The notes beneath the pieces were generated by a model. That model did no database searches, was not told the DNA's origin, and saw only the letters and a list, made by a program, of their open reading frames with translations. Of a stretch of 64,000 bases of DNA, positions 13,503-35,074 are shown piece by piece. The stretch spans positions 1,114,331 to 1,178,330 of the forward strand of contig CAVXUF010000002.1 of the NCBI GenBank assembly GCA_963764975.1, given 5' to 3'. The DNA comes from an uncultured Chloroflexia bacterium (GTDB lineage: Bacteria > Chloroflexota > Limnocylindria > Limnocylindrales > CSP1-4). The first letter of the stretch is position 1, and every line of letters begins with the position of its first letter. The position numbers and the translations under genes are program-made.

Positions 13503-16328
13503 TTGCAGACCGCGCATCCCGACCGCCCACGCCGCCGCCAACCACCGCCATCCAACGGAGGCGCGTCGTCCGGTGGCTACATCGGGGTCATCCTCGTCCT
13601 GTTCTTCGCCGGCGTCGGGGCTATCGCGTCGATCGCGCTCGTGGGCGCCTACACGTCGCTCGCGAGCGACCTGCCCCCCACGAGCGAGCTGACCAAGTTC
13701 GTCCTCTCCGAGGAATCGATCATCTACGACCGCACCGGCGAGACCGAACTCGCGCGGTTCGGGGACGCCAAGCGCGAGGTCGTGACGTTCGAGGAGATCC
13801 CGCCGATCATCCTTGATGCCACGACGGCGATCGAAGACAAGACCTTCTGGGAGAACGCCGGCTTCGATCCGGTGGCGATCGTGGCGGCGGCGCTCGATTC
13901 CCTGCGCGGCAACAGCCGCGGTGCGTCCACGATCACCCAGCAACTGGTGCGGGCGCGGCTGCTCGACCCGGAGTTGGTCCAGGACCCGTCACGGACCGCG
14001 GAACGGAAGCTCAAGGAAATCATCCAGTCCATCCGCGTGACCCAGGCGTACCCGGGCGACCCCGGCAAGCGCGAGATCATCACCGCCTACCTCAACCAGA
14101 ACTACTACGGCAACCAGAGCTACGGCGTGAAGTCGGCCTACGAGGGCTACTTCGGCAAGCCGTTCCTCGCGGAGAACATCACCCCGGCCGAGGCCGCGAT
14201 CATCGCCGGGCTGCCCAAGTCACCGTCGAACTACGACCTGGTTCGCAACGCCATCGAGGAGTGCGATGTCGTGCTGGACGAGGGCCAGGTCTGCCCGAAC
14301 CCCGTCCTGGTCGTCCCCGAGGACACGACCGTGGTCCAGCGCCGAAACGACATCCTGGACCTGATGGCCGAGGGCGGCCGGACGCCGATCTCCGAGGATC
14401 TGTACTCCCCATCCGACTTCGAAGCCGCGAAGCTCGACGAGGTGTTGCTGGCCGGCCAGACCGCGACGCGATGGCTGGCGCCCCACTTCGTGTGGGCGGT
14501 GCGCGACGAGCTGACGGAGAAACTGTGCGGCCCCGACGCCGAGTCGTGCGACGCGCTCGAACGCGGGGGTCTGCGGATCACCACGACGGTCGATCTGCGG
14601 CTCCAGGCCATCGCCGAACGGTGGGTGGAAGCCGCCGCCATCGTGCCGCACCGCAAGAACCCGGTCGCGGCAGCCCGGGCGCTCGGGTTCGAGGAGTACC
14701 CCGCGTGGCTGGCGAACCTCGAGAACAAGAACCTCCGAAACGGGGCGCTCGTGGCGCTCGACTACCAGACCGGCGAGCTGGTGGCGTACGTCGGCTCCGC
14801 GAAGTACTACGCGACGAATAGCAGCAAGCGGTTCCAGCCGCAATACGACGTCGTCGGCCAGGGCTTCCGCCAGCCTGGATCGGCGTTCAAGCCGTTCAAC
14901 TACGCCATCGGCATCGAAGACCAGAAACTGACCGCCGGCACGATGCTCATGGACGCGGCGACGGACTTCAGCGGCTACACGCCCAACAACGCGGACAACC
15001 TCGAGCGCGGGCCGGTCCGTGTGCGCAGCGCGCTCCAGTTCTCGCTCAACATCCCCTCGGTCAAGGCGGCCGCGATCAACGGCGTCGATCACATCTTCGA
15101 TCGGGCCAAGGACTTCGGGATGACGTTCCAGAGCGAGCGCTCCGACGCGGGCCTCGCGCTCGCGCTCGGCGTCCAGGAGGACGCGACCCGTGGACCTCGT
15201 CACGGCCTATGGGACCCTGGCCAACGGCGGGCAGCGGGTCGACCACACGACGATCCTCACCGTGCAGGACCGGAACGGCAACGATGTCGTGCCGCCGCAC
15301 AAGGTGGTCCCGGTGCCGGTGGTCAGCCCGCAGACGGCGTTCATCGTCACGGACATCCTGGCGGGCAACACGAACTCGCAACATCAACCCGTTCTGGGGC
15401 CGGTTCGCCATCCAGGGCCCCGACGGCCGCCGGTCGGCCACGCTCAAGACCGGGACCAACAACGACGCGAAGGACCTCAACGCCTACGGGTATATCGCCC
15501 CACCGACCGAGGACGGCCGGGCCGACGGGGCGTATGCGCTGGCGGTGGGCGTTTGGAACGGCAACAGCGACAACAGCCCGGTCTCCACCGCCGCGCGACC
15601 GGTCTTCTCGATCGACGTCTCCACCTACGTGTGGCAGGGGTTCCTCCAGGAGGCGAGCCAGGACTGGCCGCTGACCCGGTTCGAGCGTCCCGCCGACGGG
15701 CTCACGCGCGTCCGGATCGACCCGTTCACCGGGATGCGCGCGGCCGACGGGGCCGAATCGGTCAACGAGTGGTTCATCCCGGGCACCGAGCCCCGCGATC
15801 AGCTGGCGGCCGACGCCTGCGGCGAGGACGTGCTGACCGCATTCAGTGCCCCGCGCGCCTACGAGAACCAGTTCTCGGCGTGGATGGCCGCGGACCGGGA
15901 CTGGTTGCGCCGCGCCGGCCGTGGTACCGGGCGTCGCCGGCGGCCCGGACCGGACGCGCACGTCGTACTTCTACAACGGCGGGTTCCGGCCGTACGGGTC
16001 GTCCTGGGGGGCGCTCGTGACCGAAGGATGCGGAGAGCCGAGCCCGTCACCGTCGTGCATCCCGCTCCCGACGCCGGACGCGAGTGGCGTCATCCCGTCG
16101 CTCGTGATCCCCTCGCCAAGCGGCTCGGAGGTGGTGGCCTTGCCGTGCGAGCCGCCGTCCCCATCCCCATCGGCGTCCGAGTCCGAGACACCGCCACCCA
16201 CCGACACGCCACCCCCGACGCCGACGCCGACGCCCACACCGACCCCGACACCCACACCGACGCCGACGCCCACCCCGACCCCGACACCCACGCCCACGCC
16301 CACACCGACACCGACACCCACGCCCTGA
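13503..16328 (+). pseudogene. Class A penicillin-binding protein (transglycosylase/transpeptidase), three +1 frameshifts as sequenced, with a (Thr-Pro)n tail
   Basis: GT51 motifs EDKTFWENAGFD and RGASTITQQL. Transpeptidase motifs SAFKP and KTGTNND. Frames switch near 15185, 15390 and 15935. Confidence 0.85.
16218..16325 (+). repeat. About 18 consecutive Thr-Pro codon pairs (ACN CCN) forming the C-terminal tail of the PBP
   Basis: Read directly. In frame with the last PBP segment; stop at 16326-16328. Confidence 0.9.
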
Positions 16329-16330
16329 CG

Positions 16331-17144
16331 ATGATCGTCGACCTGGCGGGGGTCACGGTCCGGCGCGGCGGTCGCACGATCCTCGGGCCGGTCGACTGGC
16401 AGGTGCGTTCGGGCGAGCGGTGGGTCGTCCTCGGACCCAACGGGTCAGGCAAGACCACGCTCCTCTCCGTGGCCGGACTCGACGCTCTGGCCGACGAGCG
16501 GGTCGGTGGCCGTCCTCGGGGAGCGGTATGGACGCGTGGATGTCCGCGACGTACGCCGCCGCATCGGGTTCGCGGGGAGTGCCGTCGAGGGCGTCTTCCG
16601 TGACGACCTCGCACCGGTGGATCTCGTCATGACCGCTCGGCACGCGGCCACCGAACCCTGGTGGCACGAGTACGGCGACGGAGGATCGCGATCGGGCGCG
16701 GGCCGTCATCGAGCGGCTCGGGATGAGCGCGGTGGCGGATCAGCCGTTCGGCACCCTGTCCGCCGGGGAGCGGCGGCGCGTCTCGATCGCGCGCGCCCTC
16801 ATGCCGGATCCGGACCTGCTGCTGCTCGACGAACCTGCGGCGGCCTGGACCTCGCCGCGCGCGAGACGCTCCTGGCCGATCTGACCCGACTGGCGGCGGA
16901 GCCGCGTCCTGCCGCGATGATCCTGGTCTCGCACCACGTCGAGGAGATCCCGCCGGGGTTCGAGCACGCCTTGGTACTCGCGGCCGGCGCCGTCGTGGCC
17001 GCCGGACCGATCGAGGACGTGATGAGCAGCGAGGTCCTGTCTGCGGCCTTCGGGATGCCATTGAAGGTGGAGCGTCGGGATGGGCGAGCCTGGGCGCGAC
17101 TTGACACGCCACTGTCACACGGGGCGCGCACGATCCCCTCGTGA
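16331..17144 (+). pseudogene. ABC transporter ATP-binding protein (about 3 frameshifts as sequenced)
   Basis: Walker A GPNGSGKTTLL, signature LSAGERRRV, Walker B LLLLDEP and H-loop VSHH are spread over three frames. Confidence 0.75.
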
Positions 17145-18691
17145 ACAAGCCACTTCGATCCGGGATCGCCGGCGCCATCGCGACGGGGGTCGCCCTCGGC
17201 GCCTCGGAACTCATCGCCGGCGTCCTCCGCGGCGCCACGTCGCTCGTCGCCGCCGTCGGCCAGTTCGTCATCGATCACCAGCCGCCCGGTGCCAAGGACG
17301 TCGTCGTGGCGCTGTTCGGCACCAACGACAAGCTCGCGCTCGAGCTGTTCGTGGTCATCGTCGCGCTGGCCATCGGCGCCGGCCTCGGGGTCGTCGCGTT
17401 GCGGCGGCCGTGGCTCACGATGGGCGCATTCGTCGCGTTCGGGATCGTCGGATTCCTCGCGGCGTTGGGCGATCCGGACGGCACGGAACCGGCGATCGCC
17501 GCCGCCGCGACGGCCGTCGCCGTCGGGAGTGGCCTGTGGATCCTGGAGCGACTGTTACCGCGCGAGACGATGGCGTCGGCCGAACGAGAGACCGGACCGT
17601 CCGGGTCGATGCCCGACTGGGATCGACGCTCGTTCCTGGTTCGCGCCGGATCGTACGGAGCGGCCGCGATCGTGGCCGGGGTGGCCGGTCGAACCCTCCT
17701 CGACCGCCAGCGATCGGCCCCGAGCTTCGGCGGGACCCCGCTCCCGCCGCCGTCCGATACGGTCGCGGACCTTCCGCCCGGCGCGGACATGTCACCCACG
17801 ATCGAAGGATTGACCCCGCTCGTCATGCCCAACGACCGGTTCTACCGGATCGACACATCGCTCCTGCCGCCCGTCATCGACGTCGACACGTGGACGCTCA
17901 AGGTGCACGGCATGGTCGAACGCGAGACGACGCTCACGTTCGCGGAGCTCGTCGGGCTGCCGATGTTCGAGCAGTACGTGACGATCGCCTGCGTCAGCAA
18001 CGAGGTCGGCGGCAACCTCGTCGGCAACGCCAAGTGGACCGGCGTCCGGCTGCGCGAGGTCCTCGAGCTCGCCGGTGTGCAACCCGGCCGCGACGCAACT
18101 GGTCGGCCGGTCCGTCGACGGCTGGACCGCCGGCATGCCGACGGCGTGGGTCATGGATCCGTCCCGCGAACCGATGATCGCGCTCAAGATGAACGACGAG
18201 CCACTGCCGGTCATCCACGGCTTCCCGGCCCGGCTCATCATCCCCGGGCTCTACGGCTACGTGTCGGCGACCAAGTGGCTGTCGGACCTCGAGCTGACCA
18301 CGATGGAGGCCTTCGACGGCTACTGGGTCCCGCTCGGCTGGGCCAAGGAGGCGCCGATCCTCACGCAGTCGCGCATCGACGCGCCGGCTCGTGGCAAGAC
18401 GATCGCGAGCGGCCGCGTTCGGATCGCGGGCATCGCCTGGGCACCGGACCGCGGCGTGTCGCGGGTCGAGGTCGCGGTCGACGGTGACTGGCGCGACGCG
18501 ACCGCTGTCGGCGCCGATCTCCGATACGACGTGGGTCCAGTGGGTCCGCGACTGGGACGCGACTCCCGGCGAGCACCAGATCATGGTCCGGGCCACCGAC
18601 GGCAACGGCGTCGTCCAGACCGAGGAACGGACGCCGGCCGGCACCCGACGGCGCGCGCGGCTGGCACACCATCCCGGTCAAGGTCGCCTGA
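17141..18691 (+). pseudogene. Membrane-anchored molybdopterin-dependent (sulfite-oxidase-family) oxidoreductase (3 frameshifts as sequenced)
   Basis: N-terminal TM helices, then FYRID, TIACVSNEVGG, HGFPARLIIPGLYGYVSATKWL and an Ig-like C-terminal domain. All shifts are +1. Confidence 0.8.
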
Positions 18692-18726
18692 CCGCTCGGA
18701 CCGGTCATTCGGTATAGAGTCCGGGC

Positions 18727-19290
18727 ATGACCCGACGACGCTATATCTTCGATCCGCCGGACCGCTTCGTGGCTGGGACGGTCGGTGAGCCGGGCAGCCG
18801 GACGTTCTTCCTCCAGGCCCGCGAGGGGGCGCGGCTCGTCAGTGTCGCGCTCGAGAAGGTCCAGGTGGCCGTGCTCGCCGAGCGTCTCACGGACCTCCTG
18901 TCGGAGCTCGACCGTCGCGGGATCGCCGCGGCGGCCGCGAGCCCGGTGGAGCCCGACTCGGATGTCGCGCCGCTGGACGAACCGCTGAAGGAGGCGTTCC
19001 GCGCTGGCACGCTGACCCTCGGCTGGGACACCGTTGACGAGCGAGTCCTCCTCGAGGCGCGCGCGCTCGACGAGGACGGCGAGGCGGTCGACCCAGACGA
19101 TGACGACGACGAGGACGAGGACGGCCCGGACCTGCTGCGGGTGCGGATCACCGCCGCGGCCGCGCAGACGTTCGTCGCTCGGGCCGCGCGGATCGTGGCC
19201 GCCGGCCGCCTGCCCTGCCCGCTGTGCGGGACGCCGCTCGACCCGCGGGGCCACATCTGCCCTCGGCGCAACGGCCACTACGTCAACTAG
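18727..19290 (+). CDS. DUF3090-family protein
   Basis: FVAGTVGEPGSRTFFLQA, an acidic linker and C-terminal CPLCGTPLDPRGHICPRRNGH are typical of DUF3090. Confidence 0.75.
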   Translation: MTRRRYIFDPPDRFVAGTVGEPGSRTFFLQAREGARLVSVALEKVQVAVLAERLTDLLSELDRRGIAAAAASPVEPDSDVAPLDEPLKEAFRAGTLTLGWDTVDERVLLEARALDEDGEAVDPDDDDDEDEDGPDLLRVRITAAAAQTFVARAARIVAAGRLPCPLCGTPLDPRGHICPRRNGHYVN

Positions 19291-19302
19291 GGCCTCGACG
19301 GC

Positions 19303-20048
19303 GTGATCGACCCCGCCGCGACGCTGGCCGCCCTTGCGGAGGGCGAGATCGAGGTCGTCGGACGCATCGTCGGCCTCGTCGAACAACGCGCTGTTCGTGC
19401 GCGTGACCCGGATCTGCCCGGACCCGGAGCCACCGATGGTGCTCGATGCCATCTACAAGCCGACCATCGGCGAGCGACCGCTCGACGACTTCCCCGACGG
19501 GACGCTTGGCGCGACGCGAGGTGGCCGCGTGGCACGTCTCGGAGGCCAGCGGCTGGGGGATCGTCCCGCCGACCGTCCTGCGCGACGGACCGTTCGGCGA
19601 GGGGATGGTCCAGGCGTACGTGGAGGCCGATCCGGACGTCGACGTCGATCGCGATGGTGGTGGGCGACGACGAGCGACTCCGGCGGATGGCCGTGCTGGA
19701 TGCCGCGATGAACAACACGGATCGCAAGGGCGGCCACATCCTCCCGGTCGATGGCGGCCGGCACTGTCTACGGCGTGGACCACGGCGTGTGCTTCTCGAC
19801 CGTGCCGAAGCTCCGGACCGTGCTCTGGGGCTGGCGGGGTCAGCCGTTCGAGACCGGACGAGGTCGACGGGCTCGAGCGGATCCGGGACGGCCTGGCGGC
19901 AGGTGGCGAGCTCGCCGCGCGGCTGCGGGAGCTCCTTGCGACGGCCGAGGTCCGGGCCACGCGTCGACGGGTGGATGCCCTGCTCGAGACCAGCCGGTTC
20001 CCGTTCCCGTCTCCGACGTGGCCGGCGGTCCCGTGGCCTCCGTACTGA
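19303..20048 (+). pseudogene. SCO1664-family (PI3/4-kinase-like) protein (5 frameshifts as sequenced)
   Basis: YKPTIGERPLDDFP, REVAAWHVSEASGW, NNTDRKGGHIL and YGVDHGVCF are spread over three frames in cyclic +1 order. This family is the usual partner of DUF3090. Confidence 0.7.
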
Positions 20049-20093
20049 CCGCCGTGCAGCGGGGCGGTCCGTAGCGCACGATGAGCGCCGGAG

Positions 20094-21706
20094 GTGGCGA
20101 TGCGGCGCTGGAACGGCTGGGGCGATGACGCGATCGACTCGACGCTGCCCGCGGCCGCCGCCGGTCTGCTCGCCCGCCTGATCGGACCCGGCCGACCGCC
20201 GGCGGACGCCACGCTCGACGACGTGGTCGCCGCTGTCGCGCCCACGCGTCTCGCGGCGCACGTCCGGCTGGACCTCGACCCGGAGGTCCGCGTGCGGCAC
20301 GCCCGCGGCCAGAGCCTGCCCGACTGGATCGCCCTTCGCTCCGGGCGGCTCGGGCGCCGTGCCCGACGCCGTCGCGCGGCCCGTCGGACGTGGCCGGGGT
20401 CCGAGACGTCCTCGCCCTGGCCGCGTCGCGGGGCGCGCGGCTCGATCCCGTACGGCGGCGGCACGAGCGTGGTCGGCGGCGTCAACGTCGCTCCGGACGA
20501 TCGGCCGGTCATCACGGTCTCCCTCGAGCGGATGGCCGGGCTCCGCGACCTGGATCCGGGCAGTCGGCCTGGCGACGTTCGGTGCCGGGACGACCGGGCC
20601 GGAACTCGAGGCGGCCCTGGCCGAGCACGGGCTGGTCCTCGGCCACTGGCCGCAGTCCTGGGAACTCTCGACGGTCGGCGGCTGGGTCGCCACGCGCTCG
20701 GCCGGCCAGGAGTCGCTCGGGTACGGGCGGATCGAGGACCTGTTCGCCGGCGGCCACCTCGAGACCCCGGCCGGACCGCTGGACCTGCCGACCGCACCCC
20801 GCGTCCGCCGCCGGCCCGGACCTCCGGCAGCTCGTCCTCGGGTCGGAGGGTCGGGCCGGGATCATCACCGATGTCGTCGTCCGCGCATCCGCCATGCCCG
20901 AGGCGGAGCACCGGGTCGCCTTCGTCGTCGGCGGCTGGGATCGCGCGGTCGACCTGGCCCAGGCGCTCGCGCAGGCCGACCTGCCGCTCTCGATGGTCCG
21001 CGTCTCGACGCCGCTCGAGACCGCGACCACGTTCGCGCTCGGCGCCGAGGCCCGCGGCGCGGGCATCCTGCGTCGCTACCTCGGCCTGCGCGGGCCTGAC
21101 GGGGAGCGCTGCCTGGCCATCGTCGGAACCGCTGGACCGGCGGGCGTGGTCCGGGCCGTCGCCCGAGCGGTCGGGGCCGTTGCCGGGGATCACCGCGCCG
21201 TCCGGGCACCCGGCGTCGCGAGCGCGTGGGCGCACCAGCGGTTCCGCGGCGCCGTACCTGCGCAACACCCTGTGGGACGCGGGCTACGCCGTGGACACGC
21301 TCGAGACGGCCGTGGACTGGAGCCGGCTGCGGGCCGACTGGCGGCGGCGCTCGGTCCGGCCCTTCGCCACGGACTCGCGGACGACGACGAGCGGGTCCAC
21401 GCGTTCAGCCACCTGTCGCACGTCTACCCGAGCGGCTCCAGCCTCTACACGACCTACGTGTTCCGACTCGCCGACGACCCGGACGAGACCCTCGAGCGCT
21501 GGCGGCGGCTCAAGACCGCGGCGAGCGGGGTCATCGTCGCGCACGGCGGGACGATCAGCCACCAGCACGGCGTCGGGCCGGGACCACGCCCCGTACCTCG
21601 CCGCGGAGAAGGGGCCGCTCGGGATGGCGGCGCTCCGTGGCGCGCTCGCGCGCGCTCGACCCGGACGGCGATGATGGCGCCGGGCGTGCTCCTCGGGGAG
21701 GACTGA
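20094..21706 (+). pseudogene. FAD-linked oxidase of the alkyl-DHAP-synthase-like type (about 10 frameshifts as sequenced)
   Basis: RRWNGWGD start, PYGGGTSVVGGV, TVGGWVATRSAGQ, LVLGSEGRAGIIT, SHLSHVYPSGSSLY and ISHQHGVG. Confidence 0.8.
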
Positions 21707-21709
21707 CGA

Positions 21710-23284
21710 GTGGCCGGCGACACGATCGTCGCGATCGATGTGGGGACCCAGAGCGTCCGGGCGATCGCCTTCGACCCGCACGGGACGCTCCTGGCGTCGG
21801 CGCGGGTGCCGATCGAGCCGTACGTCTCGCCCCGACCCGGCTGCGCCGAGCAGGATCCGGAGCTGTACTGGCGCTCCGTCGGCGAGGCGATGCCAGACGC
21901 CTGCTCGCGCGACCCGGCGGTCCGCGTCGAGTCGCATCGCCGCCGCCACGATCACCACCCAGCGCGGCGACGGTCGTCGTGACCGACGAGGCCGGCGACC
22001 CGACTGCGACCCGCGATGGTCTGGCTCGACCAGTGCCGGGCCGCGAACCCGCCACGGGTCGGCGGCGCGATGGGCGTCGTCTTCCGCCTGACCGGCCTGA
22101 CCGACACGGTCGAGGGGTTCGCGGCCGACTGCGAGGCGAACTGGCTGCGCGAGACCGAGCCCGAGACGTGGGGCAAGGTCCGCCACTATCTCGGTCTCTC
22201 GGGGTTCCTCGACCCAACGCCTCGATCGGGCGGTTGGTGGACTCCACGGCCGCGCAGGTGGGCTACCTGCCGTTCGACAACAAGCCGGTTCACGTGGGCC
22301 GCGCCGCGGCGACTGGAAGTGGACCGTCGCGCCCATCGAGCGCGACTGGCTGCCCGAGCCTGGTCCCCCCGACTGGCCCGCTCGGAGAGATCACGGCTGC
22401 TGCGGCGCGCCACACCGGACTGCCGGCCGGGCTGCCGGTCATGGCGGCGGCCGCGCGACAAGGCGTGCGAGGTCCTCGGGTCCGGCGCCGTGACACCCGA
22501 CGTCCTGGGCCTCTCCTACGGCACCGCCGCGACCGCCAACGTGACCAGTGCCCGGTACGTGGAGCCGATCCCGCTCATCCCGCCGTTCCCCGCCGCCATC
22601 CCCGGACGCCTGGACCCTCGAGACGCAGGTCTATCGCGGGTACTGGATGGTGGAGTGGTTCAAGCGCGAGTTCGGGGACCGCGAGGTGGCCGAGTCGCGG
22701 CGGAGCGCGGCGTCGCGCCAGAGACGCTGTTCGAGCGAGCTCGCTTGAGGCCGTTCCGGCGGGCTCCGACGGCCTCGTGCTCCAGCCGTACTGGTCACCG
22801 GGGGTCCGCATCCCCGGGCCGGAGGCGCGCGGCGCGGTCATCGGGTTCAACGCGATCCACACCCGTGCCCACGTGTATCGCGCGATGCTCGAGGGCCTCG
22901 CCTATGCCCTCCGCGAAGGCGCGGAGCGCACCGCCAAGCGGACCGGCGTGCCGCTGACGTCGATGCGGATCGCGGGCGGAGGGTCACAGAGCCCGGCCGC
23001 GGTCCAGCTCACCGCGGACGTCTTCGGGCTCCCGGTCAGCCGCGCCCACACGCACGAGACCTCGGCCCTGGGCGCGGCCATCGATGCCGCCGTCGGCGCT
23101 GGGTTCCATCCGGATGTCGCGGACCGCGGCGGCGGCCATGATCCGCCTCGCCGAGACGCGGGATCCCGACCCCGTGGCCCACGCCCGCTACGAGGACCTG
23201 TACCGGGCGGTCTATCGCCCGATGTACCGGCGCCTGCGGCCGCTGTACCACGAGCTTCGTCGGATCACGCGCGCGGATCGCTGA
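21710..23284 (+). pseudogene. FGGY-family carbohydrate kinase (about 12 frameshifts as sequenced)
   Basis: [31 protein letters not shown] and RIAGGGSQSPAAVQLTADVFGLPV. Confidence 0.8.
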
Positions 23285-23321
23285 CCGCGGCTCGGCGCCG
23301 AGCGCGGACATCGGACATGAC

Positions 23322-24089: not shown

Positions 24090-25129
24090 TCAGGCGCGGA
24101 CCTCCTGGCGCATGAACAGCGCGTACGCCGCCGCGAAACAGAGCACGGTCAGCGCCACGAGAGCGACCACCTGCGGCCAGACCAGCAGCATGCTCTGGTC
24201 GAGCGAGAGCAGCCCCGGGATCTGCCACTGCGCTTGCTCCAACTGGCCGATCGTGGCGGGGGTCGAGATCTGGGTGAGGTTGGGCTGGAGGATGACGCTC
24301 GAGACCTCGCGGTAGAGCGTGCTCGGCAGGAGCCGTGTGACCCACTCCTGCGCCTGGTAGCTCCCCAGGACCTGGTCCGCCGTAGCGTTCGCCGCGGGCC
24401 GGAACAACCCCGAAACGAGGGTGACGATGAGCTGGCCGAAGATCGTGAACAGGAGCCAGACCCCGAACCCGATGAGCGCCGACGTGGCTGCCCGTCGGAC
24501 GACGACCGACAGCAGCAGGCCGAACGCGAGCCACAGGGCGACGTACAGGAATGTCACGAACAGCCAGGCGACGATGCGGATGATCTCCGGCCCCTGCGGG
24601 ACGATCCCGAGCCGCAGCATCCCGAACCCGGCGATGAACAGCACGACGGCGACGCAGGACCAGCCCGATGACCCCAAGGCCCGCCGCGAACTTGCCGTTG
24701 ATGACGTCGTCGCGGTAGATGGGCTGCGACAGGAGGCGCGGCAGCGTGCCCTCCGACCGTTCGCCGTTGACGGCATCGAACGCGAACGCCAGCCCGAGCA
24801 GCGGCGCGACGATCCCGACGAACGTGTCGACGCGCAGGATCGCGATGTCGGATGGCCCGAGCGTGAACAGCGCCAGGAAGATCGCGGGGGCGCCGCTGGC
24901 GGCCTGGGCGGCACCGCGGATCAGGTCGGCCGCGAAGTAGAGCGGGATCGCCGCCGCCAGCCCGAGGACGATCAGCAGGACCGACGAAGCGGACGCTCAG
25001 GACGTGGTCGCCGAACTCCTTGGTCGCGATCACCCACCAGCCGGCCGGCAATCGAGCTCGCTTGTGAGCCGTGCTCGCATCGGTCGCGTCAGGCGCGGCG
25101 CTCGGGATGGGTGCGGCATCCGCGGTCAT
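24090..25129 (-). pseudogene. ABC-2-type transporter permease (one frameshift as sequenced)
   Basis: N-terminus WWVIATKEFGDHVLSVRF in one frame; four or five C-terminal TM helices in another. Confidence 0.7.
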
Positions 25130-26174
25130 GCGGCGGTCCTCCCGTCGGCGGTCGGGAGCGCCTCGACCCACGGCCTTGTCGGCGAGGCCGCGACGCTCGA
25201 GGGCCGTCCGGTAGATGTCATCGAGCGACGGGACGATCGGCCGGATCGCCGTGAGATGGAGTCCGTTGCTCAAGGGCCGCCGCCAGGACCGCCTGACGGA
25301 CCTTGCCCTCCTCGGCCGCCGGCCGGACGGTCAGTCGCCAGATGCCGGAACGCCTGGGCGGTCGCGTCACCGAGATCACGCTCGCCAGGCCGGCCAGGAC
25401 CCGTTCGGCGCGCGCGAGGTCGTCGTCGCCGGTCAGTTCGAGCTCCACCTCGATCGCGGCGGACCCGTCGCCGAACAGGCTGGCGAGCCGGCTCACGGTC
25501 CCTTCGCCCACCAGCCGCCCCGACGCGAAGATCCCGATCCGGTCGCAGACCGACTGGACCTGGGTGAGCAGGTGGCTCGAGAGCAGGATCGCCAGTCCGC
25601 GTTCGTCGACGAGGCGTCGAAGCAGGTCGAGGATCTCGACGACGCCCAGCGGGTCGATCGAGGTCGTCGGTTCGTCGAGGATGAGGATGTCGGGCGACTT
25701 CACGAGCGCATCGGCGATGCCGAGACGCTGCCGCATGCCGCGCGAGTACGTCTCGAACGCGGTCGTCCGCCCGGTCCGGTGAGGCCGACCTGCTCGAGGA
25801 CCTCGTCGATCGCGATCTCGGCCGCCTTGCCCTTGAGGCCGTTGAGCCGAGCGGTGTAGCGCAGGTTCTGGCGACCCGTCATCTCGCCGTAGAACCCGAC
25901 GGCATCGGGCAGGTACCCGACCCGTCGCTTGACCTCACGCGGATATCGAGCCGGGTCAAGGCCCGACCACGCGCGCCTGGCCGCTGGTCGGCTCCGTAAG
26001 CCCGAGGAGCATCAGGATCGTCGTGGTCTTGCCCGCGCCGTTCTGGCCGAGCAACCCGAAGATCTCGCCCCGGCGCACCTCGAGGTCGAGCTTGTCGACG
26101 GCGGTGAGCGTGCCGTAGCGCTTCGTCAGCGCGCGGGTTCGGATGAGCGCCGCGGAGCGATCCTCACGGGACAT
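25126..26174 (-). pseudogene. ABC transporter ATP-binding protein (about 4 frameshifts as sequenced)
   Basis: Walker [22 protein letters not shown], Walker B ILILDEPT, SSH and a C-terminal regulatory-like domain. Confidence 0.8.
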
Positions 26175-26194
26175 GGTCTTGGTACCCCGTTCGC

Positions 26195-27354
26195 TCACCG
26201 GCGCCCGTAGCGCAGGAAGACCCAGCCGAGCCCGGCGAGCACCAGCGCGATCAGGCCGATCCCGATGGCCCCACCGAGGAGGCCGGTCTGGATGGTCACC
26301 CGGATGTCCGCGGCGCCGTTGGCCTGCTCGCCGCTCGCCCGGAAGGACACGACGTAATCGCCCGCGATCGCGTCGCCCGAGGGCGTCATGTGGGCGATGA
26401 TCGTTTGCTCGGTGTTCGCCTCGACGTCCACGGTCTCGGGCTCGAAGGTGATGTTCCAGCCCGTCGGCGCGGTCGCCGTGACCTTGACGCCGGTCGACGG
26501 TCGCTGTGCCCGTGTTCTGGACCACGAGCGAGAGGTCCGTGTTCGATCCGGCGGACGCCTGGGCGTTGAGCCGGGCGTCGGGCGTCGTGAGCCGTGAGCG
26601 AGTAGGTGCCGGTGACTTCGGCCGCCAGATCGGCGGTCGCGGTCCGGGTCCCGCTCGTGACTTCCACCGTGATCGGGTAGATGCCGGCCGGGACGTTGGC
26701 CGGCGCGGTCGCGGTCACCGTCACGGGCGTGGTCGCGCCGGCCTTCACGATCGCGCTGGCGGCCTGGCTCTCCGAGGACACCTGGGTCGTGACGGTCCAC
26801 CCGGCCGGACCGGTGGAGGTTCCGCCGAACGTCAGGTCCTCGGCCGTGTCGTTGCGGAGGGTCAGGTTGAACTTGAAGCTCGTGGTGGATGTGCCCTTGA
26901 GCTGCGGGAAGTCCGTGGTGAGCGTGACCTCACCGGCAGCCTGCGGGGTCACGCGGATATCGAGGGGCAAGGTCGTCGTCAGCCCGCCGCCCACCGCCGT
27001 CGCAACGAGCTTGACCGTTGACGCGCCGGCGGTCTCGGGGACGCTCACATCGAGCCGAACGTCCGTGGCCTTGCTGCCGTCCGACAGGATCCCGTCGACG
27101 ACGAAGCCACCACCAAGGAATTGCGCCGTCCAGCCGGCGGGTACCCCGGTCACGCTCAGGTTCACGCGCTGACTCGTCGCAGTCTCGATCGACAGATCGA
27201 AGCTGACCTTGGCGCCCGGCGCCACCGCGACGGCCGGATATGGCGTCGTCAGCGTCAGGCCGTCCGCGGCGGCCGTTCCCGGCACGCCGACCAGGAGCGC
27301 CGTCAGGAGCGTCAGCAGGCCGAGCGTGGCCCGCCGCTGCGGTCGTCGTCCCAT
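26195..27354 (-). pseudogene. Secreted, C-terminally anchored protein with repeated Ig-like (NEW3/CARDB-like) domains (2 frameshifts as sequenced)
   Basis: Signal peptide LLTLLTALLVGVPGTAAA. Repeated motif P..W..T...: VTGVPAGWTAQF, GPAGWTVTTQV and [11 protein letters not shown]. Terminal TM helix. First gene of the ABC operon. Confidence 0.6.
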
Positions 27355-27599
27355 CCCGGATGAACCTCCTCCAGATGCCTCGAATGTCGTCGTGGTCCGG
27401 GTCGTCCCAAGCCGGGCACGGCCGGTACGACCGCACGCGCTGATCACCGAGTCCTTCGGATCACGTCCGGGAATCTGCGTCCGCGCTTGCTGCGAATCAA
27501 CCAAGCCTTGGTGAAGACTCGTGAATCTTCGGTCATCCTCGCATGTTCGGGGCGAGTTCGCGCCCGTTCGAAGACCCCCGACCCGACGACCCTGACCGG

Positions 27600-27926: not shown

Positions 27927-28119
27927 GGACGCCGCCAGCCTGACACGTGCCCCGGCGTCGACGAGCGTGCGGATGCCGCGGAGGGCCCCGGCATGGGCAC
28001 CGAGCCCGCGGTGGGCGTCGTGTCGACGTGCGTCCGCCGAATTGAGGCTCAGCCGAGGGCGCGCAACGCCGTGGTGTCGAAAGCGACGCGGGCGGTATCA
28101 CCGGGCCAGCATCCCTCTC

Positions 28120-29007
28120 GCCGCGGCCCAGTCGCCGCCGCTCGCCTACAACCACCCCGTGACCCTCGACGGGATCCTGTGGCTCGTCAGCGGAACCCAG
28201 TTCCGAGGCCAGTTCGGCTTCCTCGTGTCGAACGGGGTGACGGACTTCACCGGATCGTTGGGCGCCCTCTGGCGGACGCTCGCGAGTCAGGGCACGCCGG
28301 TCCTGCCGGTGCTCGGTCTGATCGGCCTGGCCATCCTCATCCACCGACGCCGTGCCTTCGGTCTGATGTGCGTCGCGATCCTGCTGGCGAACCTGTACTT
28401 CTGGGCGACGTACCTCCGACTGGAGCACTACCTGCTGGTCCCATGGCTCCTGCTCGCGATCGGCGCGGGCGTCGCGATCGATGCCGCCGCTCGAGGGCTG
28501 GCGGCCTTGCCATCGCGCAAACCGGGACCGCGCGGCCGCCAGTCCGGCCGGCTCATCGGAATGACTGCGCTCGTGTTGGCCGTCGGTCTCGCGGTGATGC
28601 ACTGGGACGCCGCCGACCGCAGCTCCGATCGCACGGCCGAGATGTTCGTCGACGAGGTCCTGACGGCCCTTCCACCCGATGCCGCGATCCTGTCGGAGTG
28701 GGACGCGACGACCCCCCTATGGCATGCCAGATATGTGCTTGGCCGCCGGCCCGATGTCCTGATCATCGACGACACGAACATCGACTACGACGGTTGGGCA
28801 TCTCGCGACCAACGCGTCGAGGCGCTCTTCTGCCATCGGCCCGTGTTCATGGTGCGGCTGCGGGACAGGGACCTGCCTTCGGCGGGCGACGTGTACCGCC
28901 TGGAGCCGTTCCTCACCGTCCGCGTCGCGTTCGGCGGGCCATCCGCCGCAGTCACGCGCCAGGTGTTCCGGGTCGTTCCCAGTGATCCACGGCGATGTGG
29001 CGACTGA
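28120..29007 (+). pseudogene. DUF2723-like membrane protein, C-terminal half only
   Basis: NHPVTLDGILWLVSGTQFRGQF, TM helices and a C-terminal soluble domain. The N-terminal multi-TM part is missing and no credible start exists. Confidence 0.55.
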
Positions 29008-29216
29008 TCATCGATGCCCACCCGGACCATCGGCGCGATTGACAGAACACCTGTTCTGACCCATCATGGGCGATGTCACCGGTCCGAACCAAGTCGCGTG
29101 AGCCCGGTCGAGCGCCTCAAAGAGGGACGCTCTCGAGCCCGCACTCGGACCACATCACAGAACCGCTCCGGCCCGCAAGAACGGTCGTGGAGCGAGCAAC
29201 CAAGGTCGCGCAGCCG

Positions 29217-29477
29217 ATGGCCGATACCGCCATCACAGCGCGCCAGAAGGAACCAAGAGCACAACCCATGTTGTCCCGTACCGCTACCGCGTCCGTCGCT
29301 GGACGCGCCACCTCCATGCGCCGGCTTCGCCGCCGCGCTTCCGCGGCGTCCACGTCGCCCACATTCGAGACCCGCACGTTCTGCCGGACCAACGGCTGCG
29401 CGAGCTTCCTCGAAGTCGATCCCGGCACCGGCACCGCCACGTGCCCCATCTGCGGGTACGTTCGCTTCAGCCACTGA
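29217..29477 (+). CDS. Small zinc-ribbon protein (86 aa)
   Basis: FCRTNGC...ATCPICGY is a C-x4-C ... C-x2-C arrangement. ATG at 29217. Confidence 0.4.
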   Translation: MADTAITARQKEPRAQPMLSRTATASVAGRATSMRRLRRRASAASTSPTFETRTFCRTNGCASFLEVDPGTGTATCPICGYVRFSH

Positions 29478-29564
29478 GGCCCCGACCAAGAGCCTGACCA
29501 CTCCCCCGTCGCGAGTGGCGGGATGACCCGAACGCGGCGGCGCGCGCCGGTCCATGCTCCGCGC

Positions 29565-30934
29565 ATGACCACCGACCGTGCCGTCGATCGCGCCCACCTC
29601 GCCACCTTGATGGCCGCCGAGACCGAGCGGTTCGTCGCGGAGCATCCCCGCTCCGCCGCCCTGTTCGAGCAGGCCAGGCGTTCGCTCCTCGAAGGCGTCC
29701 CCATGCCCTGGATGGTCAAGTGGGCCGGGCCGTTCCCGCCGTTCGTCGAGTCCGCGTCGGGCGCATCCTTCCGCTGCGTCGACGGCCATGACTACGTCGA
29801 CTTCTGCCTCGGCGACACCGGCGCGATGGCGGGTCACGGCCCGGCACCCACGATCGCGGCCGTCGAACGGCAGTTGCGGCGCGGGATCACCCACATGCTG
29901 CCCGACCGAGGACGCCGCGTGGGTCGGCGACGAGCTGACGCGACGCTTCGGCCTGCCTCTGTGGCAGTTCGCGCTGTCGGCCACGGACGCCAACCGATTC
30001 GCCCTGCGCCTCGCGCGACACATCACCGGCCGCTCCAAGGTGGTCGTCCACGACCACTGCTACCACGGGTCGGTCGACGAGGCGATCGCGATGCTCGACG
30101 AGGACGGGCGGGTCGTCCCGGTCCGTGGGTCCGTCGGGCCACAGACCGATGTCGCCGGCACGACACGCGTCGTGCCGTTCAACGACGTCGCCGGCGCTCG
30201 AAGCCGCCCTGGCCGAGGGCGACGTCGCGGCGGTCCTCATCGAACCGGCGCTGACCAACGTCGGCATCGTGCTGCCGGAGCCCGGCTACCTCGAAGCGAT
30301 TCGCGAGATCACGACGCGCACCGGGACCATCCTGATCAACGACGAGACGCACACGATCTGCGCCGGGCCGGGCGGAGCCACGCGGCTCTGGGATCTGCAC
30401 CCAGACATGCTCGTCATCGGCAAGACGATCGGCGGCGGGATCCCGGTCGCCGCCTATGGCTTCACGAGCGAGATCGGCGAGCGCATCCATCGCTCCCTGG
30501 AGATCGTCGACTCGGACGTCGGCGGGATCGGCGGGACGCTGGCCGGGTATGCGCTCTCCCTGGCCGCGACGCGCGCGACGCTCGGCGAGGTCCTGACCGA
30601 GGCCGCCTTCGAGCGGATGATCCCGCTCGCGGAGCGCTGGGAGCAGGGCGTCAACGACGTGCTCGCGACGACCCACGTCCCGTGGCACGTCACGCGGCTC
30701 GGCGCCCGCGCCGAGTACCACTTCATGCCGGACCCGCCGCGCACCGGCGCCGAGCAGTGGGCCCATTCGGATCCTGACCTCGAGCAGTTCCTCCATCTGT
30801 GGGCGATGAACCGGCGCGTGCTGATGACGCCGTTCCACAACATGGCCCTGATGTCGCCGTCGACCACCGACGCGGATGTCGACCGCCACACCAAGGTGTT
30901 CGGCGACGCGATCGCGGCGCTCTTCCCCGCCTGA
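29565..30934 (+). pseudogene. Class III (GSA-aminomutase-like) aminotransferase (2 frameshifts as sequenced)
   Basis: VDFCLGDTGAM, SATDANRFALRLAR, LIEPALTNVGIVLP, INDETHT and GKTIGGGIP. Confidence 0.8.
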
Positions 30935-30940
30935 GGCCGA

Positions 30941-31401
30941 TCAGCCCGCGGGTTCGAATGCGGCCTCGAGGGTCGCGAGCTCCGTGGCGAGATCCAGCGG
31001 GCGTCGATGCTGGCGTGGCGTGGGTGCTTCGCTGTTGAGACGCAGGGTCGCGCGGTTGATCTCGGTCACGAGCCGGGTCATCTCGGCGCGCGCCCGCGGC
31101 CGGGCGATCGATGACGCCCACGGCGCCCGTGTCAGAAGCCGGTCTCGCTGGTCGAGCATCGTCCGGATGGCCTTGTCGGCCTCGATCCACCCCGGCGCCA
31201 CCTCGGCGTTGCGAAGGATCCGGTAGCCCATCGCCCAGTCACCGGCGGCGCTGTCGTCCTCGAGCGGGAGACGCTGGCCCTGGTGCGGCAGGTCGTCGAA
31301 GGCGCCCGCTTCGGTCGCCTCACGGATCTGCCGCTCGACGAGGCTCTCCCACTCGGGCCGACCTGTCGCATCCCCGCGTCGTCGCGTCGCTGCGCTGGCA
31401 T
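30941..31401 (-). CDS. DUF1992 (DnaJ-homolog subfamily C28-like) protein; start uncertain
   Basis: WESLVERQIREATEAGAFDDLPHQGQRLPL and AGDWAMGYRILRNAEVAPGWIE. No in-frame ATG lies near the N-terminus. Confidence 0.6.
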
Positions 31402-31460
31402 GTCCGTATCGTACCGCCGCTGACAGGCGAGCTGGCACGACCAGCCGGTATGGTGCGGGG

Positions 31461-34400
31461 GTGCAGAAGATCGATGGTCGGCCTGTCTTCGCGGCCACGG
31501 ATCTCGTCGCGTACCTCGCCTGCGAGCACCTGACCCAGCTCGAGCGCGCTGCCCTCGGCGACCTCGTCAAACGGCCGTTCCGCGACGACCCTGAGCTGGA
31601 CATCATCCGCAAGCGTGGGTTCGCCCACGAGGCTCGCTTCCTCGCCGACCTCAAGGCCACGGGCAGAACGGCGATCGAGATCGATCCGGACGGCTACGAG
31701 GAAGATCAGGGCGCCCGGCTCAGCGCCGCGGCCCAGGCAACGGTCGCGGCCATGACCGACGGCGCGGACGTCATCTACCAGGCGACCTTCTTCGACGGCA
31801 CGTGGCGGGGCCACGCGGACTTCCTCCTGCGGGTCGACGACCCTTCACGCCCGTCGGCGTGGGGCGACTACCACTACGAGGTCGCCGACACCAAGCTCGC
31901 CCGGCACGTCAAGGCGAGCGCCGTGCTCCAGATCTGCTCCTACATCGACCAGCTGGTCCGCCTCCAGGGCGTCCAGCCGGAGTGGATGCACGTGGCGCTC
32001 GGCGGCAGCGCCCGGGCCGTCGAGCGGCTGCGCGTCGACGACTACATGGCCTACTACCGGAGCGCGAAGGCGCGCTTCCTCGCGACGATGGCGGACCCGA
32101 TCCCGGCGTCGTACCCGCCGGCCGACACCTACCCGGATCCGGTGGAGCATTGCGATGTGTGCCGCTGGGCCGAAGGCTGCTCGGACCGACGACGGGCCGA
32201 CGATCACCTCAGTCTCGTCGCGGGGATCAGCGCTCGCCAGCGCCAGGGACTCATCGAGCGTGGCGTCCCGACCCTCGAGGCGCTCGGGAGGCTGCCGCTC
32301 CCCATGGAGCCGCGACTCGAAGGAGCGAGCCCGACGGCCCTGCTGCGTGTTCGCGAACAGGCACGAATCCAGCTCCAGGGCCGTCTCGACCGTGCGCCGC
32401 GCTACGAGCTCCTGCTCCCGGAACCGGGCGCCCCCATCGATCCGGAACGCGGCCTCGCCATCCTGCCGCCGCCGTCGCCGGGCGACCTGTTCCTCGACAT
32501 CGAGGGCGACCCGTTCGCCTTCGACGACGGGATCGACTACCTGTTCGGCGTCCTCGAGGCGGACGAGACGTTCCATGCGTTCTGGTCCCGCGACGCCGGC
32601 GGCGAGTTCACACTCGATGGGGAGCGAGTGGCGTTCGAGCGCCTGATGGACTTCTTCGCGGCGCACCTTGCCCGCCACCCTGAGGCCCACATCTACCACT
32701 ACGCGCCGTACGAACCCACGGCGCTGAAACGACTTATGGGCCGCTACGGGACCCGCGAGGACGAGGTGGACGCGCTCCTGCGCGGCGGCGTGCTCGTGGA
32801 CCTGCTGCGAGCGGTCCGCCAATCGCTCCGGGCGTCGGTCGAGAGCTACTCGATCAAGAAGATGGAGCCGTTCTACGGGTTCGTCCGGGAGGTGTCCCTG
32901 CGCGACGCCGGCTCCAGCATCGTGGCCTTCGAGCAATGGCTGGAGCTGGGCGAGGGAGAGCGGCCGGCCGCAGACCACCTGGACCGCATCGAGCGCTACA
33001 ACCGCGACGACGTGGTGAGCAACCTGCGACTGCGCGACTGGCTGGAGGACCGACGCGGGGAACTGGCGGATCGGACGGGGCTGGCCATCCCGAGGCCCGG
33101 GCCCGCGGGGCGAATTGCCGGAGCGGCTGACCGACGAGATGCGCACCACGCAGGCACTCGTCGACCGGCTCGCGGACCCCAGTGTCGTGCCTGTCGATGC
33201 GGCCGAGCGGACAGCGGACCAGCACGGGCAGTGGCTCCTGGCCCAGCTCCTTGGCTGGCATCGGCGTGAGGACAAGGCCACGTGGTGGGAATTCCATCGC
33301 CTGATGGACCTCAGCGCGGCCGAGCTCTTGGACGAGTCGGACCCGATCGCCGGACTGGAACCGATCGGGCCGGTCGACGAGGTGGCCAAGGGCAAGCAGA
33401 CCTGGCGCTACCGGTTCCCGGAGCAGGACTTCGACCTCGGTCGGGGCACCGTCTACGAGCCCCGTCGCAAAGCCGAGCGACCCGACGAGAAGCCATCGGC
33501 GTGGGTCTGCGGCGACGTGGTCGGGATCGATGTGGCCGCATCCACGATCGACATCCGGCGAGTCCCGGGCGACCCACATCCCGAGGCCATCGTCCCGCTG
33601 ACCATCTATCAGACGCCACAGCACCGTGCCCGCCTCCTCGAGCTCGGGACGTGGGTGGCCGAGCACGGGATCGACGCCGACGGCCCGCACCGTGCGGCAC
33701 GGGACCTGCTGATGAGCCGGCCGGCCCGCGCCGGACAGGGCATCGGCGATCCACTCCGGGCGCCGGGTGAACTCGACCTCCACGCCGCCAGACGACTCGC
33801 GCTGACGCTCGACCGAACGATCCTACCGATCCAGGGCCCACCGGGGACCGGCAAGACCTACGGCGGCGCCCGGATGATCCTGACGCTCCTCCAGGCCGGT
33901 CGCCGCGTCGGGATCACCGGGATGAGCCACAAGGTCATCGGCAACCTCCTCGGGGCGGTGTTGCAGGCCGCCGAGGAGGAGGGCGTGGACGTGCTACCGG
34001 TCCAGCACGGGGATGTCCACCAGGTGCTCGCCGATGAGCGGGTCGTCCGGGGGAACGGTGCGGCCGACGTCGCGGCACGACTCGCGGACGGTCGCTCGAA
34101 TCTCGCCGCGGGGACATCCTGGCTGTGGGTCTCGCCGACGATGCTGGAGACGGTCGATGTCCTGTTCGTGGATGAAGCGGGACAGAACTCGCTCGCGAAC
34201 GTCGTCGCGATGGCGGCCGCGGCCGAGAGCGTCGTCCTTCTCGGCGACCCGCAGCAACTCGACCAGCCGCTCCAGGGATCGCACCCGCCGGGCGCCGAGC
34301 GATCCGCCCTTGCCCACGTCCTCGGGAGCGCGTCCACCGTCCCGCCGGACCGCGGCCTCTTCTTCGAGACGACCTGGCGGCTGCACCCGACCCTGACGGC

Positions 34401-35074
34401 CTTTACGTCGGAGGTCTTCTACGACGACCGGCTCGAGTCGGAGGCGCGTCTCGTCGTCCAGCGGATCCTGGACGCGCCGGCCGGGCTGGACGGGACGGGT
34501 CTTCGGCTCGTCGAGGTCGCCTCGGCGGGCGCTGACAACGAGTCGCCGACCGAGGCCGCGGCGGTCGCGGCCCTGGTCACGGGCCTCATCGAGGCTGGCG
34601 CGTCGTGGATCGACCAGGATGGCGTCCAGCGGCCGCTCGACCTGGAAGGAGATCCTCGTCGTGGCGCCGTACAACGCGCAGGTCGGCGCGATCGCGAGGC
34701 TTCTCCCGCCGGAGGCCCGGGTCGGTACCGTCGACAAGTTCCAGGGCCAGGAGGCGCCTGTCAGCGTCTACTCCCTCACGACGTCCAGCCCGGAGCTCGC
34801 CCCGCGCGGGATGGACTTCCTGTACAGCCGAAATCGACTCAACGTCGCGACGTCCAGGGCCCGCTGCATCGCGATCGTCGTGGGGTCCCCGGACCTGTGG
34901 CGCGTCCGGGCGCGAACGCCCGCCCAGATGCGCCTGGCGAACGCGTTCTGTCGGTTCGTCGAACTGGCGACGGTCGTGCCGAAGACGGTCGGGCGGACGG
35001 CCGCGTCCACGGATCAGTTGATCGAAGGCCCAGGCCTCGACGACGTCGGGGACCTGACGCTCGGCCTGGACTGA
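31461..35074 (+). pseudogene. Fusion of Cas4/RecB-like nuclease, DEDD-like exonuclease and SF1 (Dna2/Upf1-like) helicase, TM0106-type (2 frameshifts as sequenced)
   Basis: YLACEH...EVADTK..QICSY..CDVCRWAEGC gives PD-(D/E)xK plus four Cys. Then DIEGDP...HYAPYE...YNRDDV. Helicase motifs GPPGTGKT, FVDEAGQ, LGDPQQL, VDKFQGQE and NVATSRAR. Confidence 0.8.

Follow-up and report, generated by a model that had tools for sequence, protein, structure and literature searches.

Clustered single-base insertions in a Limnocylindria metagenome contig likely reflect a strain-merged consensus

The 64,000-nt stretch analysed here (the window), from an uncultured Limnocylindria lineage, contains between positions 13503 and 35074 a series of recognizable genes whose reading frames are broken, some of them many times over. 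Has a block of housekeeping genes decayed in this organism, or were the breaks introduced when its genome was assembled? A preliminary description had counted about 44 shifts of the downstream frame by +1 against about 8 by -1, noted their strong patchiness, and favored assembly or consensus error, arising from low coverage or insertion-prone chemistry, over real decay. We recounted the breaks by alignment, located each extra base and compared it with the corresponding position in relatives. Our conclusion is that the breaks are, in all likelihood, consensus or polishing errors of a metagenome assembly, probably made from long reads, in which strains were merged, and not mutations of the organism; for the long-read origin, the one indication is the single 2.14-Mb (2,140,877-nt) contig to which the window belongs.

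Recount of the frame breaks

The 13.5-35 kb region was compared with two sets of sequences: contigs from the short-read metagenomes of three studies, representing relatives of 96.6-99% identity, and orthologues in synteny that are intact and 70-87% identical. At the protein level, orthologues from two syntenic sets (L005; L009/L010/L006) were matched to the window DNA by frameshift-aware alignment, while at the DNA level the window was compared with near-identical contigs. Between 13503 and 35074, 55 insertion events shift the frame, 54 by a single nucleotide and the other by 2 nt, against two deletions of one base each, at 16841 and 31350 (binomial p = 2e-14), the latter lying upstream of the nuclease-helicase gene. 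The +1 bias thus persists in an alignment-based recount and is stronger than first estimated, most of the presumed -1 moves being 2-nt or paired 1-nt insertions. Compared with the 4,195-nt short-read contig L012, all 33 indel events in 19039-23267 add sequence to the window, 32 of them a single nucleotide and the remaining one 2 nt, with 0 deletions; the remainder of the region contributed 22 further insertion events and the two deletions. The switch points listed in the preliminary description each lie within 15 nt of an exact single extra base (15179, 15375, 15927, 19371, 19506, 19646, 19768 and 19850).

Table 1. Affected genes and reference tracts in the window, with the position of each extra base.
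Feature	Coordinates	Strand	Indels in the window	Restored frame (codons)	Remarks
Class A penicillin-binding protein, PBP (Transgly + Transpeptidase)	13503-16325	+	extra bases 15179, 15375, 15927	951	orthologues 909-930 aa
ABC transporter ATPase	16331-17141	+	extra bases 16481/2, 16678; one base missing after 16841		seen at protein level and in four runs, two studies
Molybdopterin oxidoreductase (Oxidored_molyb)	17141-18688	+	extra bases 18080, 18505, 18632	527	additional net 3-nt in-frame difference at 17471/17474
DUF3090	18727-19287	+	0 frameshifts at protein level		intact, within the affected tract
SCO1664/TIGR03843 family	19303-20045	+	extra bases 19371, 19506, 19646, 19768, 19850		read-through protein 98% identical to P0121
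FAD-linked oxidase	20100-21703	+	extra bases 20351, 20380, 20443, 20566, 20791, 21252, 21334-21335, 21574, 21648, 21667	536	orthologues 531-532 aa
FGGY carbohydrate kinase	21707-23281	+	18 extra bases: 21889, 21899, 21904, 21935, 21965, 22002, 22210, 22225, 22282, 22310, 22358, 22455, 22604, 22690, 22693, 22737, 22743, 23119	519	orthologue 520 aa; one more extra base just downstream, at 23301
ABC-2 transporter operon and NPCBM-associated genes	24093-27360	-	extra bases 24653, 24984, 25157, 25270, 25759, 25780, 25962, 26496, 26595		every indel versus contigs is a 1-nt window insertion; ~24654 and ~26592 seen at protein level
Class III aminotransferase	29565-30931	+	extra bases 29904, 30190
Nuclease-helicase, ~1,200 aa	31461-35071	+	extra bases 33105, 34638	1,281
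Tract free of frame-shifting indels	34893-54431				includes aceE (41154-43949); 0.0-1.1% divergent from X1 population
Small second patch	54432-57707		extra bases 54432-54433 (2 nt), 55020, 55305, 57707

Gene by gene (Table 1), the protein-level alignment reproduced the numbers of breaks first reported for the PBP (3), the ABC ATPase (3, comprising two extra bases and one missing base), the molybdopterin oxidoreductase (3), the SCO1664-family gene (5), the FAD-linked oxidase (10) and the aminotransferase (2). The two events reported for the nuclease-helicase were both recovered at the DNA level, one of them also by protein-level alignment. For the FGGY kinase, the earlier figure of about 12 agrees with the 12 net switches seen at the protein level and falls short of the 18 true insertions, because clustered insertions cancel in frame. 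Similarly, the seven events assigned to the ABC-2 operon are present in the ABC-2 block, and two more lie at 26496 and 26595; at the protein level, one break was detected in the ABC-2 permease and one in the NPCBM-like gene.

The extra bases are specific to this record. They are missing in L001 (97.5% identical) and in L002-L004 (87% identical), contigs from three studies, four runs in all, lack the same bases, and 28 of 34 were absent in all five relatives of a multiple alignment. Sequences L001-L004, L012, L005 and L009, which represent conspecific populations or relatives and not the source sample, are free of the lesions. Skipping 53 extra bases yields open frames of 951, 527, 250, 536, 519, 484 and 1,281 codons, fitting the lengths of the orthologues, which are unbroken single ORFs. 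In public reads, 31-mers sampled from 21870-21990, each spanning an extra base, occurred in no indexed run, whereas the surrounding neighborhood was present in 17-20 indexed runs, all of conspecific populations and not of the source sample; the best-matching run shares 0.33-0.76 of the window's words. Short insertions of 1-2 nt found in this record but in neither relatives nor indexed reads, together with the return of a full-length frame in every affected gene on their removal, strongly support the initial preference for assembly or consensus error over decay.

True pseudogene blocks, such as those of Mycobacterium leprae, also contain many adjacent housekeeping genes with frame disruptions, and in this respect they resemble the window. 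Real decay, however, is deletion-biased, and its deletions come together with nonsense mutations, larger losses and IS insertions. The lesions described here are nearly all insertions of 1-2 nt in otherwise conserved frames and are absent from conspecific read sets. Frameshift-aware protein alignment revealed no in-frame stop codons across the aligned genes, and there were no larger deletions or IS elements among the lesions. In the densest tract, 94 of 141 substitutions fall at codon position 3, and 89 are synonymous versus 52 non-synonymous; since substitutions are mostly at third positions, the frames were under selection. The window strain does stand apart from each of the relatives sampled, with 19 differences private to it in 1.1 kb, and its branch has a somewhat higher proportion of non-synonymous changes (25 of 48, with 23 synonymous) than the X1 branch (25 of 78, with 53 synonymous), a difference that could reflect extra substitution errors or some relaxed selection. 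Both observations would suit genuine inactivation, by single-base insertions, of a series of housekeeping genes that includes the PBP, the FGGY kinase and the FAD oxidase. Against it stand the 55:2 ratio of insertion events to deletions, all of 1-2 nt and without nonsense codons, larger deletions or IS elements, the continued dominance of third-position substitutions, the concentration of as many as 18 independent hits in a single 1.6-kb gene with the neighboring DUF3090 and RDD genes untouched (the RDD gene, too, has 0 frameshifts in protein-level alignment), and the absence of insertion-bearing words from indexed public read sets. Bacterial decay is reportedly deletion-biased, an observation attributed to Mira, Ochman and Moran in 2001. 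We therefore regard real pseudogenization as very improbable.

Distribution and sequence context of the extra bases

Event density is strongly heterogeneous along the window (chi-square 162, 27 d.f., p = 3e-21), which bears out the patchiness claimed at the outset. It reaches 7.9 events per kb at 19.0-23.3 kb. Of the two tracts first described as clean, 41.1-54.2 kb, including aceE, indeed lacks frame-shifting indels; 56.0-63.8 kb contains one event, at 57707. Pfam scans of the ORFs around 53.4-58.4 kb gave no help in placing the breaks of the small second patch. Between 34893 and 54431 the sole indel is a G at 41143, which is intergenic and polymorphic. GC content does not explain the pattern: the densest 2 kb has the highest GC in the window (0.764), yet no events occur at 36-38 kb (0.721) or 62-64 kb (0.727), where GC is equal to that of 18-20 kb (0.722). 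Insertion density correlated with divergence from X1, an outside population and not a within-sample strain (Spearman 0.47, p = 0.011). The 7.9 events per kb coincide with 3.4% divergence, as against 0 per kb at 34.9-48.4 kb, where the ten X1 pieces are 0.0-1.1% divergent. Some dense stretches are nonetheless little diverged, and 14750-16480 carries 3 insertions despite 0.6% divergence to X1.

Locating the indels against orthologues and tabulating their homopolymer context, as the preliminary description had proposed, revealed that homopolymers are avoided: only 11 of 55 extra bases (20%) adjoin an identical base, compared with a background of 42% (p = 6e-4). The other 44 lie in no run, and the longest run touched is 3 nt. 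Miscalled homopolymer lengths of the 454, Ion Torrent or Nanopore type are hard to reconcile with this distribution. Programmed frameshifting or slippage sites fare no better, as the contexts are heterogeneous with no slippery motif in common and the sites are missing from all orthologues. We give hardly any credence to either of these origins. A new CpG was made by 30 of the 55 extra bases against a background of 33% (p = 8e-4), and the junctions showed no significant preference for sites beside third codon positions (23 of 31 versus an expected 2/3).

Neighboring alleles and the origin of the insertions

Comparison with all relatives revealed what the extra bases are. Of the 28 single events that could be tested, 24 have an extra base equal to a relative's allele at the adjacent aligned column, where the window itself carries a different base. 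The analytic null expectation was 0.247 (p = 2e-11), and when random insertions were simulated and re-aligned 15 times, the matching share averaged 0.27 and never exceeded 13/31. At 19506, for instance, the window reads C|T where L012 carries C and L001 carries T; TGT/TGC at 19768 appears as TGTC, GCC/GCG at 21252 as GCCG, and A|C occurs at ~20791/20792. Further upstream, 16481, 18505 and 18632 are of the same kind. The matching allele often comes from a relative that is 13-25% divergent rather than from a co-occurring strain, and the two closest contigs give 4 of 28 matches (null there 0.018); the link emerged only with all relatives in the comparison. With X1 as the only comparison, mismatches were not enriched beside indels (8 of 142 within 3 nt, ~8 expected). 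We also considered the window as a chimeric alternation of the L012 and L001 haplotypes. No such pattern emerged: at 19 of the 27 variable sites the window agrees with neither contig, and it constitutes a third haplotype.

The identity of extra bases with adjacent alleles, together with a density that tracks divergence, points to co-existing strains merged in the consensus. At a single-nucleotide difference between two co-assembled strains (x/y), consensus building or polishing would keep both alleles in tandem ('xy'), and each such site would add one base and shift the frame by +1. Under an indel-favoring error model of the PacBio-CLR kind, 'xy' would cost x-reads and y-reads one cheap deletion each and could thereby outscore either single allele. 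Insertions would then be dense only where the strains diverge most, at 13.5-35 kb with a peak at 19.0-23.3 kb; this most divergent tract is probably a recombined segment. The tandem-allele model accounts for the near insertion-only lesions, the avoidance of homopolymers, the gain of CpG and the density in the divergent tract, CpG being created frequently because third-position C and G alleles fall in tandem. The one-base deletions at 16841 and 31350 do not fit its simple form. Judging from the assembled sequence, the source reads would show a two-strain pile-up at these sites.

The cause first suggested, low coverage or insertion-prone chemistry, is refined accordingly by what was observed of the extra bases: they are non-random, not homopolymer-linked, equal to adjacent alleles and correlated with strain divergence. 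An indel-dominated error model remains a plausible ingredient. Plain random consensus error, in which noisy insertion-prone long reads met low coverage or failed polishing and strain polymorphism played no part, would suit several observations. Insertion-only lesions and 10-20-kb patchiness resemble the effect of read-length-scale dips in coverage, the PBP segment carries insertions at only 0.6% divergence, and the non-synonymous excess on the window branch could consist of substitution errors. PacBio CLR raw errors also lean to insertions, at ~8% compared with 3% for deletions and 2% for substitutions (preprint 10.1101/2021.08.23.457338). Nevertheless, the 33:0 ratio of insertions to deletions exceeds the raw-read ratio of ~8:3, random or stutter insertions should be neutral or enriched beside identical bases rather than depleted (20% vs 42%), and matches to neighboring alleles would be expected at ~25-27% rather than the observed 86%. 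We consider random error without strain polymorphism rather unlikely.

The allele matches bear equally on the reality of the insertions. Extra bases equal to neighboring alleles speak against real pseudogenization, and we know of no mutational process that would yield them. One could imagine that heteroduplex mismatches between diverged strains were resolved by recombination-linked retention of both nucleotides, pseudogenizing a ~20-kb imported tract, and with it a class A PBP, in a free-living member of the Limnocylindria; we think it extremely improbable that the extra bases are real in this sense.

Related artefacts and consequences for the record

Merging of variants is a documented source of such errors. 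Long-read assemblers collapse strains of ~98.7% identity (PMC8302730), and early PacBio/FALCON assemblies contained computational indels at nucleotides differing between merged haplotypes (Korlach et al. 2017, GigaScience, PMC5632298). As proposed for the window, the PacBio/FALCON artefact consists of false frameshifts in otherwise intact genes at sites that differ between haplotypes, and it was cured by phasing. In that case the merged sequences were haplotypes of diploid birds, two in number; the window would instead combine co-existing bacterial strains of a metagenome. The tandem signature of both alleles and the insertion-only bias, both seen in the window, receive no detailed account there.

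The lesions also resemble generic long-read frameshift errors, small ORF-breaking indels in long contiguous MAGs that comparisons to orthologous proteins reveal and polishing removes (proovframe preprint 10.1101/2021.08.23.457338; Sereika et al. 2022, PMC9262707). Those usual errors are described in PMC9262707 as homopolymer-linked and including many deletions, whereas those in the window avoid homopolymers, are nearly all insertions and lie at polymorphic sites.

The locus thus offers no new biology, and the value of the finding is practical. The ~60 apparent pseudogenes or split ORFs in the window, including the class A PBP, FGGY kinase, FAD oxidase, ABC-2 transporter and nuclease-helicase, are almost certainly artefacts, and inferences of pseudogenes, gene loss, metabolism or novel ORFs from this record should be suspended until strain-aware re-polishing. 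An extra base equal to the neighboring alternative allele, insertion-only lesions and homopolymer avoidance together form a signature that can be read without the source reads and that would tell strain-merge consensus errors from real decay and from ordinary long-read noise in public MAGs.

Single-base insertions between 13503 and 35074

The window has a G+C content of ~70% and its class A PBP homologues belong to Candidatus Limnocylindria/Limnocylindrales (Chloroflexota); its own ORF is listed on a contig of 2,140,877 nt. Near-identical DNA is present in 17-20 public metagenome runs from eight studies; these comparison populations are conspecific and come from a different sample than the window's source. 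Among the relatives' contigs, L001 is 97.5% identical to the window and L002-L004 are 87% identical. Loose ends of run X5 at 40559 and 41933 read TGTCTCTTATACACATCT, the Nextera transposase adapter, and these Logan contigs therefore stem from Illumina libraries with the adapter left untrimmed.

The preliminary description had reported dense frame breaks in 13503-35074, and comparison with relatives confirmed them, revealing 55 frame-shifting insertions versus 2 deletions (p = 2e-14). When 19.0-23.5 kb was compared with contigs from four runs (three studies), exact extra bases were located within 15 nt of the proposed switch points, at 19371, 19506/19507, 19646, 19768, 19850 and further sites. 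Global alignment of 19039-23267 with L012, a 4,195-nt contig of metagenome run X1, gave 142 mismatches and 33 indel events, all 33 of them window insertions (32 of 1 nt, one of 2 nt), with no deletions in the window. In a multiple alignment, 28 of the 34 extra bases of this interval were missing in all five relatives. The earlier hand count (~44 shifts of +1, ~8 of -1) had captured a real bias, which is stronger at the DNA level, where most of the apparent -1 moves resolve into 2-nt insertions or pairs of 1-nt insertions.

Frameshift-aware protein-to-DNA alignment to syntenic relatives whose genes are unbroken (L005, L006, L009 and L010) reproduced the gene counts proposed earlier: three each in PBP, ABC ATPase and Mo-oxidoreductase, five in SCO1664, 10 in FAD oxidase and two in the aminotransferase. 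For the FGGY kinase, the estimate of about 12 held as net protein-level switches, but the DNA contains 18 extra bases. DUF3090 and RDD showed no frameshifts in this alignment, and none of the aligned genes contained in-frame stop codons. In the Mo-oxidoreductase, the window carries 1 + 2 extra bases relative to X1 at 17471-17474 (net 3 nt, in frame); either a genuine additional codon or a pair of artefacts that offset each other would explain this.

The events are patchy (chi-square 162, 27 d.f., p = 3e-21), reaching 7.9 per kb in 19.0-23.3 kb, and insertions are denser where the window locally diverges more from the X1 population (Spearman 0.47, p = 0.011). Of two spans previously described as clean, 41.1-54.2 kb stood, as no frame-shifting indels were found against relatives' contigs at 34.9-54.4 kb, aceE included; 56.0-63.8 kb did not, since it contains one event of a second small patch (54432, 55020, 55305 and 57707). 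Near 57500 the GC3 frame plot shifts phase within 57116-57873, where relatives lack one base at 57707; a small unannotated gene without a Pfam domain is probably also split there. Separately, X1 has one more G at 41143, in the spacer just 3' of the aceE stop, while X5 matches the window; this is natural polymorphism outside the artefact.

Alleles in series and conserved frames

Placing each indel against orthologues and tabulating its context, as had been suggested, showed that 44 of the 55 extra bases are singletons. They adjoin an identical base less often than background (20% vs 42%, p = 6e-4) and create CpG more often (55% vs 33%, p = 8e-4). This sequence context, together with the intact orthologues, contradicts homopolymer error or programmed frameshifting as the source. 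Viewed column by column, one variable column of the relatives corresponds to two window letters, both alleles. Among single events, the extra base equals a relative's adjacent-column allele unlike the window base there in 24/28 cases (analytic null 0.247, p = 2e-11), many of these other alleles being seen only in more distant relatives; fully re-aligned null simulations (15 runs of 33 random insertions) gave a mean of 0.27 and a maximum of 13/31. Random noise from low coverage, the cause suggested initially, is contradicted both by this allele match and by the rarity of extra bases next to identical ones.

Extra or missing bases and two-allele sites (window positions)
Feature	Position	Detail	Comparison
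Extra bases	15179, 15375, 15927		X1 and other runs
Extra bases	16481/2, 16678	base missing at 16841	relatives' runs
Extra bases	18080, 18505, 18632		relatives' contigs
Extra base	23301		X1 and other runs
Extra bases	24653, 24984, 25157, 25270, 25759, 25780, 25962, 26496, 26595, 29904, 30190		X1 and other runs
Extra bases	33105, 34638	base missing at 31350	X1 and other runs
Two-allele site	16481	C/G in series	
Two-allele site	18505	G/C in series	
Two-allele site	18632	C/G in series	
Two-allele site	19506	C/T in series	L012 = C, L001 = T
Two-allele site	19768	TGT/TGC -> TGTC	
Two-allele site	20792	A/C in series	
Two-allele site	21252	GCC/GCG -> GCCG	

Skipping 53 extra bases known from relatives restored frames of 951 (PBP), 527, 250, 536, 519, 484 and 1,281 codons, in agreement with orthologue lengths, whereas the unedited window yields fragments only. 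Read across its five breaks, SCO1664/TIGR03843 gives a 246-aa protein with 98% identity to an unbroken Logan protein. Because differences from L012 fall mostly at third positions (94/141; 89 synonymous vs 52 non-synonymous), the frames, including parts 3' of the breaks, have been shaped by purifying selection. With L002/L003 as outgroup, substitutions show no excess length on the window branch (48 changes vs 78 on that of X1). Its larger non-synonymous fraction (25/48 vs 25/78) would fit some additional substitution errors but does not decide the matter by itself. In 21870-21990, every 31-mer spans an extra base, and the sampled 31-mers occurred in no indexed public run. Several observations contradict real pseudogenisation: the lesion spectrum, the conserved frames, the match of extra bases to alleles and their absence from any conspecific read set. 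The earlier preference for artefact over decay is supported and becomes more specific.

Strain variation elsewhere in the window

At 1900-4460, X1 word depth is ~1 against 7-10 in the flanks, and this scarcely covered stretch looks like a strain-specific accessory segment. Two further segments diverge from X1 far more than the sequence around them, 9155-10328 with 6.1% mismatches and 11383-12195 with 34 mismatches plus 32 gaps over 0.8 kb, and look recombined or hypervariable. Collinearity with the X1 contig breaks down at 34686-34890, the 3' end of the nuclease-helicase gene: several small indels lie close together, and X1 coverage is then missing up to 34893. Strains appear to vary in the C-terminus of this protein or in the intergenic junction. 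Ordinary polymorphism explains two in-frame length differences: the window differs by 15 nt from X1's own contig at 63791, and by 3 nt at 59241 from a high-depth contig that probably belongs to another organism. Summed word depth peaks of 330-1,250 at 15926-16562, 41952-42072 and 42920-43282 mark conserved segments (ABC ATPase, aceE core) common to many metagenome organisms and carry no copy-number signal.

Origin of the extra bases

From these sequence comparisons, the extra bases are best explained as an artefact of merging strains at the consensus or polishing step, in which two co-assembled haplotypes differing at a site would leave both alleles in series. A likely reason is that, under an indel-dominated error model, writing "xy" would cost x-reads and y-reads one cheap deletion each, while choosing x or y alone would cost expensive substitutions in half of the reads. 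Long-read assemblers collapse strains that are ~98.7% identical (PMC8302730), insertions (~8%) outnumber deletions (~3%) and substitutions (~2%) among raw PacBio errors (preprint 10.1101/2021.08.23.457338), and consensus indels from merged haplotypes are already documented (PMC5632298). Retention of both alleles at strain-variable sites would by itself account for the insertion-only bias, the homopolymer avoidance, the CpG excess (through third-position C/G alleles in tandem) and the patchiness (through a probably recombined tract with many strain SNPs). Two observations fall outside this simple both-alleles model: the two deletions of one base and the higher non-synonymous fraction of the window branch. 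The frame-break tract is no real biological feature of the organism, and the worth of the finding is diagnostic.
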